A stretch of DNA of 64,000 bases from a virus (taxonomy: Duplodnaviria; Caudoviricetes), in the IMG/VR virus record IMGVR_UViG_3300020050_005097, positions 1-64,000 of that record. The stretch is one strand, 5' to 3'. Positions 4,342-34,254 of this stretch are shown one piece after another. The translations under genes and the position numbers were made by a program. Within the stretch, counting starts at the first letter, position 1; each line of letters opens with the position of its first letter. Under the pieces are notes generated by a model. The model was not told where the DNA came from. It saw nothing but the letters and a program-made list of their open reading frames with translations, and made no database searches.

Positions 4342-5582
4342 CATCCCCAATCTGCCTCGAAAATAGGCAGATTTTCATCCGCCCATTTACGCTCATTAAA
4401 CGTCTGTTTTACATTCAAAGAAGCACGTACTGCACGGTCCACAGGAGACTCTGAAACCAGTGAATAATAGTACAAATCTCTAAACGTAGACGTGAGTCTG
4501 TCGATCCTACCCTGTGACTGTTCGAACTTCTTATAGGAGTAAGTCAGGGAGTAGAACACCATTGCATCAGTCTCGATACAGTTCCAACCTTCAGCACCAG
4601 CAGTGTACTGCACAAGATATACCCAGTTGTCAGACTTAGGAATCTCTTGCTTGCGGTGACCATTCCACTCTGCAATAGAAGGCCACTTACTATCAGCACC
4701 ATTCATCTCTCCAACACCAACAAGATCAGACCACGTGTCGTTCAACTCACGCAGCATATCAAGTTCGTAGTTGTAGTTATAGAACACAATGAGCTTAGGG
4801 TGAATCTCCATCAACTCACGCAGAGCAATCAACCGAGATGGGTCGCCATACACGATCTTACGACACACCGCGAACAACTCTCCGGCTTCTCGAATGGGTC
4901 TATCCTCGAAGGGATTCCATCGATCTTTCCATGCGATGTTGAACAAGTCTATGTCGTAGAACACCTCGATCTGTTTGTGATGACGAGTAGCATCACTCAA
5001 GTACTCCATCTCAACGAGTACTTCTTTCTTCAACTTCTCGAGCTTGGCAACCCCCAGAAATCGTTCAATCTTAGGATATCTACTGAACGGCGCATAGACA
5101 ACATGCTCACGTTTGAACTGAGTTACGTTCTTGTAGAACCCGTTAGCGATGAACACCGGAACATAGTCCAGCCAAGTATCTCCGGGGGTTGCGCTCAAGA
5201 TAAGCCAAGCGTTTCCGTTCTTCACGATCTTCTGAAACGACTTGACCCAGGCTCCGTTACCTACAAGCCTCTGTTCGTCGAAGATGAAGAAGCTGTCTTT
5301 GACTTCCTCGTATTTACTAATATTGTTCCACGAGTCGATGTGTAACACACCGGCAACCGAGGTATCTTCCGTGAGTCCAATACCAAACTTCGCCGCGTCT
5401 CCTTGCCATTCGAGAGAGTCCCGTTTCTTGGCGGTGGTGATGACATAGATATCATCCAACATCTCCTTTTCCATGTAGTAGGCCAGAGCGACAATGGATT
5501 TACCGCTACCAACACCACCCCACAAGATCTTCCCGTTACTCAGTCGGTTCAGTACTTCCCTCTGGTGAGGCATCAGTTCCAT
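4341..5582 (-). CDS. SF2 DNA helicase
   Basis: GGVGSGKS Walker A, FIFDEQR, LSATPG, QYTAGAEGWN, QSQGRIDR. Confidence 0.85.
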   Translation of the reverse strand: MELMPHQREVLNRLSNGKILWGGVGSGKSIVALAYYMEKEMLDDIYVITTAKKRDSLEWQGDAAKFGIGLTEDTSVAGVLHIDSWNNISKYEEVKDSFFIFDEQRLVGNGAWVKSFQKIVKNGNAWLILSATPGDTWLDYVPVFIANGFYKNVTQFKREHVVYAPFSRYPKIERFLGVAKLEKLKKEVLVEMEYLSDATRHHKQIEVFYDIDLFNIAWKDRWNPFEDRPIREAGELFAVCRKIVYGDPSRLIALRELMEIHPKLIVFYNYNYELDMLRELNDTWSDLVGVGEMNGADSKWPSIAEWNGHRKQEIPKSDNWVYLVQYTAGAEGWNCIETDAMVFYSLTYSYKKFEQSQGRIDRLTSTFRDLYYYSLVSESPVDRAVRASLNVKQTFNERKWADENLPIFEADWG

Positions 5583-5820
5583 CGTTCGCCTCTCGTGTAA
5601 GAACGGTTGGGTCCATAATCAAATGCGCAGCAGCATTGCGTTGTTCAACACTATGAATACGAACCTCATTCCAACCGAACGTATGGTGAAAAAGGGCAAT
5701 CGCTTTGCCAACATCAAAAGTCACAACATGTGCGCTAACATTTCTTCGCCAGTTCTGTCCTTCTTTTGCTGGAAGCGACCCCTTCACTTCATAGATCCAC
5801 GGTCCATTGTATTTAGTCAT
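5536..5820 (-). CDS. Hypothetical protein
   Basis: ORF in operon, overlaps neighbours. Confidence 0.55.
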   Translation of the reverse strand: MTKYNGPWIYEVKGSLPAKEGQNWRRNVSAHVVTFDVGKAIALFHHTFGWNEVRIHSVEQRNAAAHLIMDPTVLTREANDGTDASPEGSTEPTE

Positions 5821-6166
5821 CGCACGTCTCCTCAGAGTTTCTTAGGGCATGTTCCAAACGAAGAATCAGCGGGTTACTATACGGAAACTCGGTGTAATCC
5901 GGGACTCCATAAAGGAACCCAAGACCAATACCGTTATCTCGGATCTGATTAGCAAGCCCAGATACCTCCAACAGTTCGAGAAGAACCTCATAGTCCTCTT
6001 CGTACTTAACCCTTTCTGAGATCAAACGTTTATTAAGTTGTCGAAGATCCCTTTCGGCATCAAGAACATCACTCTGAAGCCCTCCGATTTTCTGTCCCTT
6101 TGTGGTAAGAGCATCGAACTGCTTCTTAAGAGTTTCCCGGAGAATCTTTTCAGTTTCATCCATCAT
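5813..6166 (-). CDS. Hypothetical coiled-coil protein
   Basis: Operonic ORF, heptad-rich. Confidence 0.6.
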   Translation of the reverse strand: MMDETEKILRETLKKQFDALTTKGQKIGGLQSDVLDAERDLRQLNKRLISERVKYEEDYEVLLELLEVSGLANQIRDNGIGLGFLYGVPDYTEFPYSNPLILRLEHALRNSEETCDD

Positions 6167-6578
6167 TATCGGTTTCCTCCATTAGTAGTTGATATCCCAA
6201 AGTCATAGCCATCGCGAAGTCAATCTTATCAATTGACGGATTACGTTCAGCCCACTTAGCGAATTCAATCTCATCACGTGGTGGGTAATACGAAAACCAC
6301 TCATCCATTTCTTGCCTAGGACGGAAAGTGTGGATCCATCGTAGATTGTTGGTGAGTGGGTGAAGCACTGGTGCCAGCATCACACCAAACCCATCGTTGA
6401 GCTGATTACAAAGCCTATCGTCTTCCAAATGGATAGTACCAAGAACACCACCGCCATCAATCGTAGAAGTCAGCTTATAGGTACTAGTCCCAATAGACGT
6501 TTTGAGATTACGTAACTCAGCCTCAGCTTTCTCAGCCCGAGCCTGCCAATCAATTGGAGTTGGTTCACCCCATGGCAT
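6156..6578 (-). CDS. Hypothetical protein
   Basis: AGGAG RBS upstream, operonic. Confidence 0.6.
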   Translation of the reverse strand: MPWGEPTPIDWQARAEKAEAELRNLKTSIGTSTYKLTSTIDGGGVLGTIHLEDDRLCNQLNDGFGVMLAPVLHPLTNNLRWIHTFRPRQEMDEWFSYYPPRDEIEFAKWAERNPSIDKIDFAMAMTLGYQLLMEETDNDG

Positions 6579-28867: not shown

Positions 28868-29520
28868 GAGTACATCTCCTTAGTTAGGTGATTATGCTTT
28901 TCGCTTGCGCTGGGCTTTCTTAGCCCGTTCCTTCTCGACGAACGCACGCTTGTTGCGCTTGCGGTGCTTGCTCTGATTCAACCGCACTTCACGCATGTGG
29001 CCGTCTTCTGGAATATCCGGGTAGTGCTTGGTGGTTCCGATTCGCTTGCCGTATGAGGCTCTGTCTTCAAGCTCGTCCACCACATCTTCATAGTCTTCCC
29101 ATGCTCCGTCAATCATGTCACAACCCCTCACTAGACATCAGCAACTTCACGAATAGGTCAACCGCATCCTGACGGTTTGTGATCTTGATCCGGCATGGCG
29201 CTGGCGAGTTAATCTTGGCCACGATTTCGTAGTACACCACCCGGTAGGGATCAAATTTAGTGACCTCGTTAAGAGTCACCTTATCTGACTTCATGATCAG
29301 TTCATCTGACACAGGCGCGCCCATCAGTACTCATCCTCCTGGATCATGCCGTAACCGGGCTCACCAAGAAGCCACACATGACCAAGACAGGCCACCTCGT
29401 TTTCCTTGCCGTTGTCAATGTTGGTACCGACGAACATCGGAACCTTCATACACTTGTGGTTGTTCGCACAACAACGACGCTTACTAGCTTCACTTCGCAG
29501 CATTTTACAGCTCCTTTGAT

Positions 29521-29847
29521 TTAGTAGGTCAACTCGTACGCTTTTGCTTCTGCTTTGATTACGTCCCACGGTTTATGGAACGATATTTCTAGGGCGTTTT
29601 GCAGAGGACTGATACTCTCGTGCCGACCATTTTGATCGTACCAGTACTCTCTAGCTTCAATTCGCGCCAATCCTCCGTGTAAAACAAGAAGATGCAACGT
29701 GTACTCATGGTGTATACCCCATCCGTATACATCCCAATACGAATTCACAAATCGGAATTTCTTGTCTCGGAAGTCTACGTCATGGGCTCTGCACCAATGA
29801 CGAAAAACAACCATATTTTCCGCAACTACAAGAACAACCTCATCCAT
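29521..29847 (-). CDS. Hypothetical protein
   Basis: AAAGGAG RBS directly after the large structured RNA. Confidence 0.6.
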   Translation of the reverse strand: MDEVVLVVAENMVVFRHWCRAHDVDFRDKKFRFVNSYWDVYGWGIHHEYTLHLLVLHGGLARIEAREYWYDQNGRHESISPLQNALEISFHKPWDVIKAEAKAYELTY

Positions 29848-29858
29848 TACTACTCCTT

Positions 29859-30730
29859 TGTTTGCATTCTTAGCAGGGGGCACGAGAGAAAGCGCCTCGG
29901 ACTATCCGATATTTAACGCAGGGCGTCTACATGAGTTCTCTTTGTGATACATGCAATAAGAGTCCTACCTCCTATCAGGTTTCGGGAGCGCCTCCAATTG
30001 GAGGAACCACATGGTGTAGGAACCAGTCTCCCTATACCACCCCTGCTAAAAATACAAACAGCGCCGGAGCAGAGCCAAAATCTACTAACCCAATTCGAGG
30101 AAAGGATTCCTGTCATGAGGTGCATTCGATTCTGACTCTGCTCCGACACTAGTGTTTGTGGGGGAACGGCCCGGTAGCTCCGTTCATTACATGAGAGTGT
30201 ACCCGACACACATAGTGCGCCTGTTCCGGGTAAAAGGGATTGCTCTCAAAACCCTTGTTTCTGAAGCAGTACTTTATGCCGACGTTCGAACTAACTTCGA
30301 ATCCGCAGATAATCTGTCAAATATAAGACCGGTAGCTGCACGTTCTTATACTTACAGATCGACGCCCACACAAATGGCTCTTTCGAGGTTCAGAAACGAT
30401 TCCAACCGCGTGCTTCTGCATTTAGCCACGGGTTAGAATAGAGCGATGAGCGGGTACCAGAGTTCTCCTATACTCAGCTGGTATAAGTCTCCCTCTGGCC
30501 CCATCTCTCACCATCACTCGCTGATCACGCTTCCAACATGATCACTAGGTTTCCGACTGGAAGTTGTCGGTCGCCTCGGGTCCCTTACGGGTAACGCCAC
30601 GAGCTGGTTTTTTGTTTAACCCGCAGATTGCCGTACACACCCGGACCCCAGAAGGACCGCGGGGGCGAGTCATCCTCGCTCAATCTGTCGTTGCCGTCTT
30701 TTCCTTGACGTTCTACTTAGTGGGGGCCGG
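29859..30730 (-). ncRNA. Candidate large structured ncRNA locus (~0.9 kb)
   Basis: No credible minus-strand ORF. 21-bp helix 29859-29879/30040-30060 and 18-bp helix 30065-30082/30128-30145, whose only non-Watson-Crick pairs are G-U on the minus strand; GNRA hairpins at 30378-30387 and 30582-30591; many nested helices. Confidence 0.7.
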
Positions 30731-30860
30731 TGTGGTATCCATCCGGCATTACATGAGGCTAGCCTCGACCACTTGCTCGAAGTCCACGACGGTATGCGTG
30801 ACCTCAAAACCCACTAACGCTCTGAGCTTAAAGCCTCTTTAGCCTCGCTCAGACGAGGTA

Positions 30861-31085
30861 CTACCGTACTACTGCTGCCGACACTGTGTCGTTGTGGCTT
30901 GGAGGATGAGCCGGCGAGTTCATGTATGTCATCGTGTAGTCCGACGTGAACAACCCACGCTTCTCGCCTTCAGCATGAAACACCTCCACATCTGCCTTTG
31001 TGTCGAACGGGCCGTACGTGACCCACTCTTTGTCGTGAGGCCATGCGCTTCCGGTTCGCTGGTTGGTGGTCATTACGATTTGCAT
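30861..31085 (-). CDS. Hypothetical protein
   Basis: AAAGGAG RBS before MQIVMTT. Confidence 0.55.
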   Translation of the reverse strand: MQIVMTTNQRTGSAWPHDKEWVTYGPFDTKADVEVFHAEGEKRGLFTSDYTMTYMNSPAHPPSHNDTVSAAVVR

Positions 31086-31547
31086 GACTCTCCTTTGTTT
31101 GGTTACTTGGCCTTTTCCTTGGTGAAATCGAAGGACGATGGATCCGCAGACCCATGCGACAACCTTCATTGTTTCTCCTTTGTTTGGTTACTTCTTCTTT
31201 GAATACCGGTGATAGAGCATACCGCCATCCGGGTTTTCCTCGCTGACGATGATGTCTTTTCGGAAAGCCGAATAGCCAACGGTTATTGCACCGATGACCC
31301 CTTTGATGATGTTGATCGGACGAATTCGAAACAGTTTCATCCGTCGATCCTGTTCAGCTGACTCGCGTAGACCACGACCTCGAAAACGTGCAGCGGGTCG
31401 AAGTTATTTCCGTCCGAAGATTCGTTATAGCTAGTCGCCATTTCGGAAGCATACGTCTTGGACACGAACGGAATACTACAAATTGCGACGTCTGCGGTCT
31501 TTCCTACGAAATACAACTTCATTGCTTTCTCCTTTGTTAGGTGAATT

Positions 31548-31820
31548 GCTTGCGAAATTCCGGTGGCCTGACTTATGACCAGACTGTACTCGAACGGATC
31601 TCATGAGCAGTATGGACTCGTATAGAGACTGTGGTAGCACCGGAAACCAAGTGGGACGCCGGGCTTGGTCGTTTAATCCATCTAGATAAGCGCGATGCTT
31701 TTCAATGCTAGATGTGATCCCACAAATATAACTGGTGAATGCGCCTATGTAGTGTCATCACCCAAGCCGACTCGCGGCTTCCGAATGGCGGTCGCATTCC
31801 TTACCGACACTTGACCAGTT
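31548..31820 (-). ncRNA. Candidate pseudoknotted ncRNA (~270 nt)
   Basis: Stem 31730-36/31814-20 encloses crossing helices 31737-43/31793-99 and 31751-56/31806-11; also CAUCUAG/CUAGAUG and UUCCGGUG/CACCGGAA. Confidence 0.55.
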
Positions 31821-32933: not shown

Positions 32934-33696
32934 TACTTGTCTCCTTTGGTAGGTTATTGACACGTAGTGGGTTAGGTGGTGCACCACCAATTCCGCAAGC
33001 TCCACAGACGGGGGAACATCTGCTTCAGCACCATTATTGGAACTGTCCCCACTACCGCTCTGAGCCTAAGTCCTGCTTTAACGTCGCTCAGACGACGAGT
33101 CGGCTTCCATAGCCAATGCTCCCTTCAGCATTAACCCAAGAGTGTACGTGGTCATTGGCTTTGACCAGGTGACCATCTCTTGATCTAGACCGGGCCCGCA
33201 ATTGAGCACGATCATTTCGGAGTCGACTTGCGTGGCTGGTACTGAGTACATCAGCTTGGTAGCTACCCAGTCGACACACGCCTTGAAGTCCTCATCCATG
33301 AGAACCCCTTTTGGTTTTCCTTTAGCACTCTCGTGCCGGAATTGTTTAATGTACTGCAAGAAAGTGGTGGCTGATGATAGTCTATGCTCTTACGCTACAT
33401 TCAGTTGGAAACCAACCTTAGTGTCACTACATCATCACTTACGTTCCGGCTCAAGGCCTTATCCGGAAACCACCGTTACTACCGATTGTTCAAATGCTTG
33501 ACGAGGGCCTTTACTTCTTCTTCGCCAGCCGGATTCCAGCTCGATCCGTTATTCGGAGAAATGTACTCCGAATGAAGTTTCCACCGCTCTGGAGGGTAAT
33601 CGTTCTGGCGGTCCCGTTTGATGATTAGGTACCGAGTCCCGATATCGGTAGAGGACTTTGGCATCTGGATGAATGCGTACTCAAGGTCTTCGCCCA

Positions 33697-34254
33697 TCAG
33701 AACTTATAGTCCGGAAGCCGAAACGGGTGGTCAAGTCCATCGGGCGCAAACATCCAGTTGGCGAGAATCGACGCGGTACGACCGTTTCCATCTTTGAAAG
33801 GATGGATCCAGAGGAACTGCTTGATCCAAATGTCGATGTCTGTTCCGCGATCCCTCGAGTCCTCAATGAACAGATCGGGGATGTTATCGAGAAGTTGAGC
33901 CATGGCGTACGGAACGCTCTGGGGGTGACAACTCGGCCCGCCACTTTGGAACACCACGGGGGTGCTCCTATACGACGGTTCCATTCGATTGATGCGGAAC
34001 TCTAACATACCCCGAACTAAACAATTGACACGAAACAGATCGTTCATGTCGAACTGCTGCGCGAACGGCTCGTTCTTCCACGGAATGTCCTGCATATACA
34101 GAACCGCCCTGGCCATCCCGACCACCTCGTCAGCGTCTGCCTTCTGACGCTTTACTTCGCTACCAATCCATGTCAACTGGCGAATGGATATGGTTTTCTC
34201 CTCTACTGACTGTGTCACGACAGACCCCTTTCCGGGTTCCCGATCTTCCAACAC
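33697..34254 (-). CDS. Fic/Doc family protein (putative AMPylase)
   Basis: Canonical WIHPFKDGNGRTAS motif. Confidence 0.85.
   Translation of the reverse strand: MLEDREPGKGSVVTQSVEEKTISIRQLTWIGSEVKRQKADADEVVGMARAVLYMQDIPWKNEPFAQQFDMNDLFRVNCLVRGMLEFRINRMEPSYRSTPVVFQSGGPSCHPQSVPYAMAQLLDNIPDLFIEDSRDRGTDIDIWIKQFLWIHPFKDGNGRTASILANWMFAPDGLDHPFRLPDYKF

Follow-up and report, generated by a model that had tools for sequence, protein, structure and literature searches.

The DNA analyzed here, referred to as the window, comprises bases 1-64000 of a 76,307-bp virus record (IMG/VR IMGVR_UViG_3300020050_005097) that is rated 100% complete. Genes in the window lie nearly all on the minus strand, and among them is a gene-free stretch of ~1013 nucleotides (nt), which extends on that strand from the TAG stop codon (30861-30863) of a 74-aa open reading frame (ORF) to position 29848, directly ahead of the next ATG at 29847. 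We favor reading this stretch as one composite minus-strand RNA, in which a predicted Pistol self-cleaving ribozyme is followed by a multi-domain RNA of ~856 nt (30715-29860), hereafter the large RNA, that lies 3' of the predicted cut. An initial annotation had placed an ornate non-coding RNA of ~0.9 kb at 29859-30730. Its non-coding assignment was upheld, but the stretch itself is longer, and the first ~145 nt correspond to a Pistol element that had gone unrecognized; the annotated start fell within ~15 nt of where cleavage is predicted, but this was fortuitous, the Pistol landmark having been missed. All ORFs and RNA elements whose coordinates are given below lie on the minus strand.

Protein coding was ruled out for this stretch. 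Between 29860 and 30860, TAA, TAG and TGA are all present in each of the six frames, so that no single stop reassignment can open a frame, and the annotated lack of a credible gene was thereby borne out. A 98-aa ORF with a GTG start (29913-30209) was also rejected, as relatives break it by indels that are not multiples of three. At the 3' boundary, the Shine-Dalgarno (SD) sequence AAAGGAG (29859-29853) and the ATG belong to a 108-aa ORF (29521-29859, SD included), and the last helix of the RNA ends at this ribosome-binding site, as had been annotated.

The 1241-aa DNA primase/polymerase of this uncultured phage is ~62% identical to its counterparts in Gordonia phages and in the Rhodococcus phages ReqiPepy6 and ReqiPoco6, and the actinobacterial domain DUF3039 occurs in a neighboring gene in relatives. 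Based on these similarities, the host is likely actinobacterial.

Relatives of the locus

Homologues were reached through flanking proteins, which yielded four relatives and, with the window, five members. Three of the relatives are full length: L005 (Logan SRR27686863), L033 (a 72-kb contig in ENA ERZ15186016) and L034 (ENA ERZ27249412, obtained via a profile search). The fourth, L006 (GCA_009612795.1), holds the 3' 516 nt only. A blastn search of the region against 50,697 phage records gave no match, and exact-word scans with conserved blocks of the 3' half found nothing in IMG/VR. Scans of the same kind with conserved blocks returned only the already-known WBZX contig from JGI metagenomes and nothing from GTDB genomes, and no IMG/VR loci were recovered when these were sought via the flanking proteins.

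The layout was the same in all full-length members, with the Pistol followed by the large RNA, the SD sequence and a gene of the same family. The distance from the cleavage site to the SD is 856 nt in the window, 782 nt in L005 and 916 nt in L033. When the window was compared with L005, the flanking genes were 74.7% and 78.9% identical at the nucleotide level and the 3' core of the RNA was 87-90% identical. In the comparison with L033, identity was 38% for the downstream protein, 88.8% for the 3' core of the RNA, 95% for the Pistol with the insert in its stem P3, and 65% for the 5' half of the RNA. Identity of the 3' core among divergent members was 84-89%. Judged by these values, the RNA is the best-conserved item of its neighborhood. 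The members are also mosaic, with the ribozyme of L033 resembling that of the window and its 5' half resembling that of L005.

A covariance model of the 3' domains, R1, scored 329 bits on the last domain and elsewhere found family members only. It found nothing in L003 or L004 (two further Pistol-bearing contigs, described below), in Rhodococcus phage ReqiPepy6, or in the rest of this genome. The regions downstream of the L003 and L004 Pistols share no sequence with this RNA, and ReqiPepy6, despite a DNA primase/polymerase with 62% identity, lacks both a Pistol and a gap of this kind.

The predicted Pistol ribozyme

The region 29400-31200 was searched on both strands with cmscan against the 4227 families of Rfam 15, with permissive filters and E<=10, and Pistol was the only family matched. 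The RNA is therefore not GOLLD, ROOL, an intron or another ribozyme on this evidence, and membership in GOLLD or ROOL, which the initial annotation had offered as one option, was not borne out. By the same search, the large RNA is outside every Rfam family, and its resemblance to GOLLD and ROOL is in kind only. The annotation's second option, a new large RNA, fits what was found: the RNA is conserved, covarying and multi-domain, has four homologues, and belongs to no Rfam family.

The Pistol match (Rfam RF02679, 30800-30858) scored 41.8 bits against a gathering score of 34.5, and its homologue in L005 scored 45.2 bits. Five related copies were compared, namely two from this phage, one from L005, and those of the IMG/VR contigs L003 and L004, which were found by a pattern search. 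The 5' part of the element (30810-30858), delimited by the RF02679 match and the compared copies, begins with stem P1, CCUCG/CGAGG (30858-30843), which has the loop UCUGAG and is followed by the linker CUAAAGA. Next come the 5' strand of P2, GGCU (30835-30832), the junction UUAA, and the pseudoknot strand GCUCAGAGC (30827-30819), which lies between P2 and P3. The 5' strand of P3, UUAGUGGG (30817-30810), pairs at 8/8 positions with CCCACUAA. This 8-bp stem closes an expanded P3 loop of 85 nt (30725-30809), in which three small hairpins are predicted and one copy of CUCAUGUAAUG is found. The 3' part (30711-30724) consists of the P3 strand CCCACUAA (30724-30717), a GU junction, and AGAA as a weak 3' strand of P2.

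The 7-nt pseudoknot, in which UCUGAGC (the P1 loop and the first base of the 3' stem) is complementary to GCUCAGA (30827-30821), was identical in all five copies. P1 covaries among the copies (CCUCG/CGAGG versus CGUCG/CGACG). An 8-bp P3, paired at 8/8 positions and followed by GU, was found in 5/5 copies, with loop inserts of 85, 76, 104, 44 and 4 nt; at its closing position U-A, U-G and G-C are seen, and further inside a G-C gives way to U-A. Because the P3 loop is expanded, the Rfam alignment is unable to place P3. The assignment made by Rfam itself (P2/P3 with GGUC at 30803-30800 and no P3) was dropped, as L005 does not keep it; the 8-bp, long-range P3, in contrast, shows both conservation and covariation.

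Pistol ribozymes cleave within the GU of a strictly 2-nt junction between P3 and P2 (PMC4604425). The GU junction that follows P3 here fits this published model, which places the predicted cut between G30716 and U30715. Active bimolecular Pistol constructs delete the P3 loop (PMC4604425), and since that loop is dispensable, a large insert within it should be tolerable. By its score and by four of five structural criteria, the 5' element is thus assigned to Pistol, with a P3 that is unusually expanded.

Evidence for RNA structure

The helices described in the initial annotation were all recovered. The three long ones each contain two G-U pairs and no mismatch, the other pairs being Watson-Crick: 19 in the 21-bp helix (30060-30040 with 29879-29859), 16 in the 18-bp helix (30145-30128 with 30082-30065), and seven in the 9-bp helix (30519-30511 with 30449-30441). 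CCAGAG/CUCUGG, UAUAC/GUAUA, AUCUGU/ACAGAU, UAUAAGA/UCUUAUA, CAGAUUG/CAAUCUG and both GNRA hairpins were likewise located on the minus strand where they had been reported, as were the recurrent words CUCAUG(U/A) (four times) and AGCUACCGG (twice).

The minimum free energy of the minus strand at 29855-30799 was -363.9 kcal/mol, compared to -307.2 +/- 9.7 for dinucleotide shuffles (z -5.86), so that the RNA outperformed the shuffles in a check that the annotation had itself proposed. The corresponding z value was -2.76 for the plus strand, and the homologues L005 and L006 gave -7.77 and -5.63. The minus-strand fold has 35 G-U pairs versus one A-C 1x1 mismatch, and mirroring the structure onto the plus strand costs 48 kcal/mol. 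These results indicated that the structure exceeds what chance would give and that it is the RNA strand on which selection acts, in line with the annotation's argument from G-U pairs.

The strand bias also bears on whether the inverted repeats serve the DNA, in replication, packaging or recombination, or are left from a degenerate mobile element such as an ORF-less group I/II intron. The near-perfect long inverted repeats (21 and 18 bp) and the variable content of the locus would be in keeping with such an origin. However, the G-U pairs lie on one strand (35 versus 1), the plus strand folds much worse, and changes in relatives keep RNA pairing, not DNA symmetry. For an intron there are no exons to join, since the flanking ORFs are separate genes with their own stop (the TAG upstream) and their own SD and ATG (downstream), and no intron family was matched at E<=10. 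We consider an origin of this kind very improbable.

Covariation was assessed in both halves of the RNA with four sequences each. In the 3' half (alignment A6), the 119 consensus pairs are 98.1% paired and 16 of them are double-changed; shuffles gave 6.0 +/- 2.0 double changes, with 0/500 reaching 16, and slid partners gave 1-4. In the 5' half (alignment A10), 77 pairs are 92.4% paired with 22 double-changed, against 9.6 +/- 2.1 in shuffles and 3-7 with slid partners. Together, ~38 base pairs are double-changed and yet still paired, well over the controls, and covariation among homologues, which the annotation had proposed to look for, came out above the controls in each half. One position of the 21-bp helix shows a mismatch followed by repair, being A-U in the window and L005, U.U in L006 and L033, and U-A in L034. 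The 3' half gave the same picture with five sequences.

Domain organization of the large RNA

The large RNA begins, 5 nt behind the predicted 5'-OH end, with the hairpin CGUC-AAGGAAAA-GACG (30695-30710), which is identical in the window, L005, L033 and L034. A variable stem-loop domain (30624-30687) follows, closed by CAGAUUG/CAAUCUG in the window and by GGUUGA/UCAACC in relatives; this is helix 2 of alignment A10, with two pairs changed on both sides. The next segment (30440-30615), as drawn from the consensus fold and pair counts of A10, comprises a conserved A-rich strand, ACAAAAAACCAGCUCGU, and a long irregular arm that includes the 9-bp helix and CCAGAG/CUCUGG. ACAAAAAACCAGCUCGU is able to pair with CGAGUGAUGG (30521-30511), which would enclose three covarying hairpins. 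The ACAAAAAACCAGCUCGU/CGAGUGAUGG helix is invariant and so beyond the reach of covariation, and in the window its 3' strand has an alternative partner at 30449-30441.

The hairpin UUCUAACCCGUG...CGCGGUUGGAA (30399-30438) is kept in L006, L033 and L034; as helix 13 of A10 it has 11 pairs that are 100% paired, with one double change. Behind it, the window alone carries a closed domain of ~140 nt, GUUUCUGAA...UUCAGAAAC (30257-30397), recognized from alignments A1, A4 and A8 and from segment folds. This domain has a second AGCUACCGG loop, a near-copy of the loop in the core hairpin. In L033 an insert of ~170 nt, unrelated to this domain, immediately precedes the conserved UUCUAACCCGUG...CGCGGUUGGAA hairpin on its upstream side, and L005, L006 and L034 are insert-free at either site.

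The conserved core block (30159-30254), formed by helices 1-5 of the 3' half, is 90% identical to L005. It contains CUCUCAUGUAAUGAA, which is unpaired and invariant, as well as a GAACGG-AGCUACCGGG-CCGUUC hairpin. In L033, a G-C pair of helix 1 is replaced by U-A, and helix 4 has three double-changed pairs. A long-range GGGUUUU/GAAACCU pairing present in one consensus fold was dropped, as L033 breaks this pairing yet supports the competing helix 1. The window is without an insert of 67-118 nt that is present behind the core block in other members.

The core is followed by an arm with a variable tip (30060-30157), closed by a 23-bp helix that includes the 18-bp helix and is ~99% paired in four sequences. 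One C-G pair of the 23-bp helix is changed to U-A and six changes are one-sided and lead to G-U; at the tip, CCC/GGG is UUU/AAA in L005. The last domain (29860-30059) is closed by the 21-bp helix and holds hairpins with the invariant loops GACUGG and GUAGGA as well as the invariant strand CCCGAAACCU. Its hairpins 12 and 13 covary, and L005 is short of 38 nt in this domain. Several unpaired elements of the RNA are invariant, among them the loops GACUGG and GUAGGA and the blocks CUCUCAUGUAAUGAA, CCCGAAACCU and ACAAAAAACC. Conservation is concentrated in the 3' half, which forms the core, with more variation in the 5' half, and closed domains have been gained or lost at a few fixed sites.

This gain and loss could be expected of a patchwork, that is, of independent small RNAs, or of hairpin-forming selfish insertions that built up 3' of the ribozyme in a spacer tolerant of them. 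Even close relatives differ by the gain or loss of closed domains (the 140-nt domain of the window, the 67-118-nt insert that it lacks, and the 170-nt insert of L033), and the members are mosaics of one another. Yet the conserved blocks keep one order across all members, and long-range helices (1 and 9 of the 3' half and 5 of the 5' half) enclose several hairpins and carry compensating changes. The scaffold itself is constant, with indels confined to its tips and junctions, a pattern shared with other large RNAs, and no internal promoter-like motif or terminator was found that would mark off separate small-RNA units. A patchwork is therefore improbable, and the polycistron of small RNAs entertained in the initial annotation is unlikely for the same reasons of enclosure and fixed block order.

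Exact matches to the hairpin ACGUCAAGGAAAAGACG, which does not vary where it stands at the large RNA's 5' end, were also observed in about eight unrelated, AT-richer viral contigs (L014, L015, L017, L018, L023, L025, L031). There it is followed by UUAAAACC, and L018 has two tandem copies. These contigs had no Rfam match and no Pistol upstream of the hairpin.

Flanking genes and further Pistol elements

The upstream 74-aa ORF (30861-31085), taken from the ORF list, has its TAG stop 2 nt ahead of the Pistol and had no match in Pfam or PHROG. It is present in L005 and L033 (75-77% nucleotide identity) and missing from L034. In L034 (positions 1-90) the Pistol lies directly behind a gene that ends in ...FDFTKEKAK*, and in the window the same ending is found upstream of the 74-aa ORF (31100-31135). 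This gene order suggests that the 74-aa ORF is an insertion or deletion between members and that the ribozyme and RNA move as a module.

The downstream 108-aa ORF with its SD is found 3' of the RNA in every member, and its protein is 97, 84, 47 and 38% identical to those of the relatives. The protein had no match in Pfam or PHROG, and Atlas returned unnamed viral clusters only. An AlphaFold2 model of it had a predicted local distance difference test score (pLDDT) of 87; with this model Foldseek found nothing at E<=0.001, and the top VIA-align Z of 5.3 was to a generic alpha/beta fold. Distant members of this protein family lack the RNA upstream. The genome carries tRNA genes, the nearest to the RNA being that for tRNA-Lys, 6.5 kb away.

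A second Pistol-like element lies at 32962-33097, with an Rfam match at 33029-33097 that scored 32.0 bits, below the cut-off of 34.5. It has a 76-nt P3 insert, and its P1 begins ahead of the stop codon of the upstream ORF, which falls within the linker. The predicted cut, G32963/U32962, precedes by 29 nt the ATG (32933) of a helix-turn-helix gene, which is the first in a pair of paralogues. L033 has a counterpart at about position 962. Upstream of this second Pistol, a 185-aa ORF (33700-34254) was noted in which Pfam recognizes a Fic/DOC domain (E 6e-9), and the same gene occupies the same place in L033.

The Pistols of L003 and L004 are located between a stop codon and the following gene. L004, a 19-kb IMG/VR contig, has the best-scoring Pistol (49.9 bits), which is followed by ~380 nt of non-coding sequence. 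Another stretch without genes in L004, of ~900 nt (region 5550-6500), lies upstream of two tRNA genes (6801 and 8208). Neither stretch resembles the RNA of this locus.

A pseudoknotted motif of ~90 nt was observed directly after a TGA stop codon in the window (31728-31820), L033 (1712-1805), L004 (4813-4905) and L005 (535-625). Its outer stem covaries (ACUGGU/ACCAGU, ACUGGC/GCCAGU, ACGGGU/ACCUGU), CAAGUGUCGGUAA and GAUGRCACUACAUAGG are invariant, and GUGUC/GACAC crosses GAAUGCG/CGCAUUC. In L004 the motif stands immediately 5' of the Pistol. It had no Rfam match at E<=10 and is a candidate for a new ribozyme or processing motif.

Transcription and function of the large RNA

A 24-nt promoter-like motif, CGCAnnWWWWACAnnnnnTAnAAT, occurs in 21 minus-strand copies in the window between 3188 and 52910, compared to 0.27 expected. 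No copy was found in a 12.7-kb block from 35790 to 23131, which includes the RNA. A terminator scan found one weak terminator-like site within this block (34050-34027) and the next at 23103-23085, and the total was below that of shuffled sequence; the locus itself showed nothing convincing in the way of a terminator or a sigma-70-like site. Since the RNA is probably embedded in a long polycistronic unit without a promoter-like motif or convincing terminator, the ribozyme probably makes its 5' end.

In the mechanism that we propose, the RNA would be transcribed within a long polycistronic message, and the Pistol would cut between G30716 and U30715, severing the upstream mRNA, which would keep a 2',3'-cyclic phosphate. 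The large RNA would be left with the end 5'-OH-UAGAA, ahead of the invariant hairpin CGUC-AAGGAAAA-GACG, a combination that should be a poor entry point for 5'-end-dependent RNases. Because the 3' side has neither a ribozyme nor a terminator, the RNA may stay joined to the downstream mRNA, or a host double-strand RNase may free it at the adjacent 23- and ~20-bp helices, which, from the parallel of RNase III sites in phage mRNAs, we infer to be the only candidate 3' processing sites.

We lean, by a modest measure of confidence, towards an RNA that acts in its own right, as GOLLD and ROOL do, by binding to a partner from host or phage or by assembling with it. This reading is favored by the size of the RNA, its conserved 3' core and variable 5' half, its invariant unpaired elements, and its conservation above all neighbors. 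The invariant unpaired blocks and loops go beyond the needs of a mere stable spacer.

Several observations weigh against the preferred explanation. Neither a promoter nor a terminator nor a signal for 3' processing belongs to the RNA itself. The SD directly adjoins its last helix, and between this helix and the ATG, 16 nt show little or no variation in 5/5 members despite the 38% protein identity, a conservation that fits a cis-acting leader equally well. In the Rfam register P2 is poor, with GGCU against AGAA giving 2/4 pairs (1/4 in L005, or 3/4 at offset 1), and because P2 is weak, self-cleavage by the Pistol is put no higher than plausible. If the register is shifted by two, GCUUU/AGAAC forms with one C.A mismatch, and in L033 CGUUUU/AAGACG pairs at 6/6 positions (alignment inspected by eye); P2 probably exists in altered form. 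Finally, the family has only five members, partly mosaic and partly near-identical, and the covariation is weak by R-scape standards, so that we regard the covariation statistics as supportive, not conclusive.

The main rival is a giant cis-acting leader or intercistronic module, in which the Pistol cuts and the RNA stays on the mRNA, where it shields the new 5' end and keeps the SD for the 108-aa ORF in a fixed, unpaired setting, with no function in trans. Such a leader needs no promoter or terminator of its own, and the RNA has none; the closing helix ends at the SD, the sequence from helix to ATG is kept in 5/5 members, and the same gene family stands behind the RNA in every one. The second Pistol, predicted to cut 29 nt before the next ATG, has a pure mRNA-processing layout, and the L003 and L004 Pistols likewise lie between a stop codon and the next gene. 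The size of the element is harder to reconcile with this role, as ~860 nt with invariant unpaired blocks, and 84-89% identity versus 38% for the gene served, go far beyond end-protection. Moreover, no alternative pairing hides the SD, hence no switch is visible, and distant homologues of the downstream gene manage without such a leader. We consider a leader function possible but on the unlikely side, and retain the RNA acting in its own right as the preferred reading.

A more specific proposal, which we hold to be distinctly unlikely, is that the locus encodes a third independent family of ornate phage RNAs with RNA-only higher-order assembly, whose monomer would be released by its own Pistol from a long early or middle transcript. 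If it were true, the Pistol class would gain a concrete job, the maturation of a giant phage RNA, and such RNAs would be extended to actinobacterial phages.

To our knowledge, few RNA classes of such size and complexity have been described in bacteria and phages (OLE, GOLLD, ROOL, HEARO, raiA), most of them without a known function. OLE, GOLLD and ROOL form RNA-only assemblies. A further such family matters, as it is conserved above the neighboring genes and occurs in relatives of Gordonia and Rhodococcus phages. Its fusion with a self-cleaving ribozyme joins two questions, the role of large phage RNAs and the purpose of Pistol ribozymes, and no paper on a Pistol fused to a large structured RNA was found in the literature. 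The predicted cleavage site supplies an exact 5' end, and the conserved 3' core, at ~300-400 nt, is of a size amenable to structural study.

Comparison with known systems

In the early mRNA of phage T7, intercistronic RNase III hairpins cut the transcript into units and leave protective hairpins. The locus resembles these in being a structured intergenic element, and its adjacent 23- and ~20-bp helices are plausible substrates for a double-strand RNase. It differs in that the cut is attributed to a ribozyme within the RNA, the element is ~10 times larger, and unpaired blocks are conserved.

Like ROOL (RF03087; PMC12286853), the RNA is large, ornate, encoded by a phage or prophage, and without a known protein partner; unlike ROOL, it has no match to that covariance model, has a different architecture, and is longer. 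It shares with GOLLD (Weinberg et al. 2009; cryo-EM, PMC12286853) a length of ~800 nt or more, a phage origin in a tRNA-carrying genome, and many helices. The contrast between a 3' part that is conserved and a 5' part that is less so has also been stated for GOLLD (PMC12286853). In contrast to GOLLD, it has no covariance-model match at E<=10 and does not lie beside tRNAs. GOLLD and ROOL form homo-oligomeric, RNA-only assemblies (PMC12286853). Palindromic AGCU and CCGG in a conserved loop of the present RNA are a mere hint of oligomerization, and both are lost in L005.

The 5' element agrees with published Pistol ribozymes (RF02679; Weinberg et al. 2015; Harris et al. 2015, PMC4604425) in P1, the pseudoknot with the P1 loop, conserved junction nucleotides, the 8-bp P3 and the GU, and like many Pistols it is phage-borne. 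It departs from them in its P3 loop of 85 nt (44-104 nt in relatives), compared to 5 nt in the Rfam consensus, in a weak or register-shifted P2, and in its fusion to a large structured RNA. The host also looks actinobacterial, whereas Pistols have been described as prevalent in Firmicutes (PMC4604425).

A further parallel is found in the hepatitis delta virus (HDV)-like theta ribozymes that lie beside tRNAs in gut phages (PMC10879173). Those belong to another ribozyme class and another phage group, and their cargo is a tRNA in place of a large RNA, yet they too are small phage ribozymes for which processing of an adjoining non-coding RNA has been proposed (PMC10879173).

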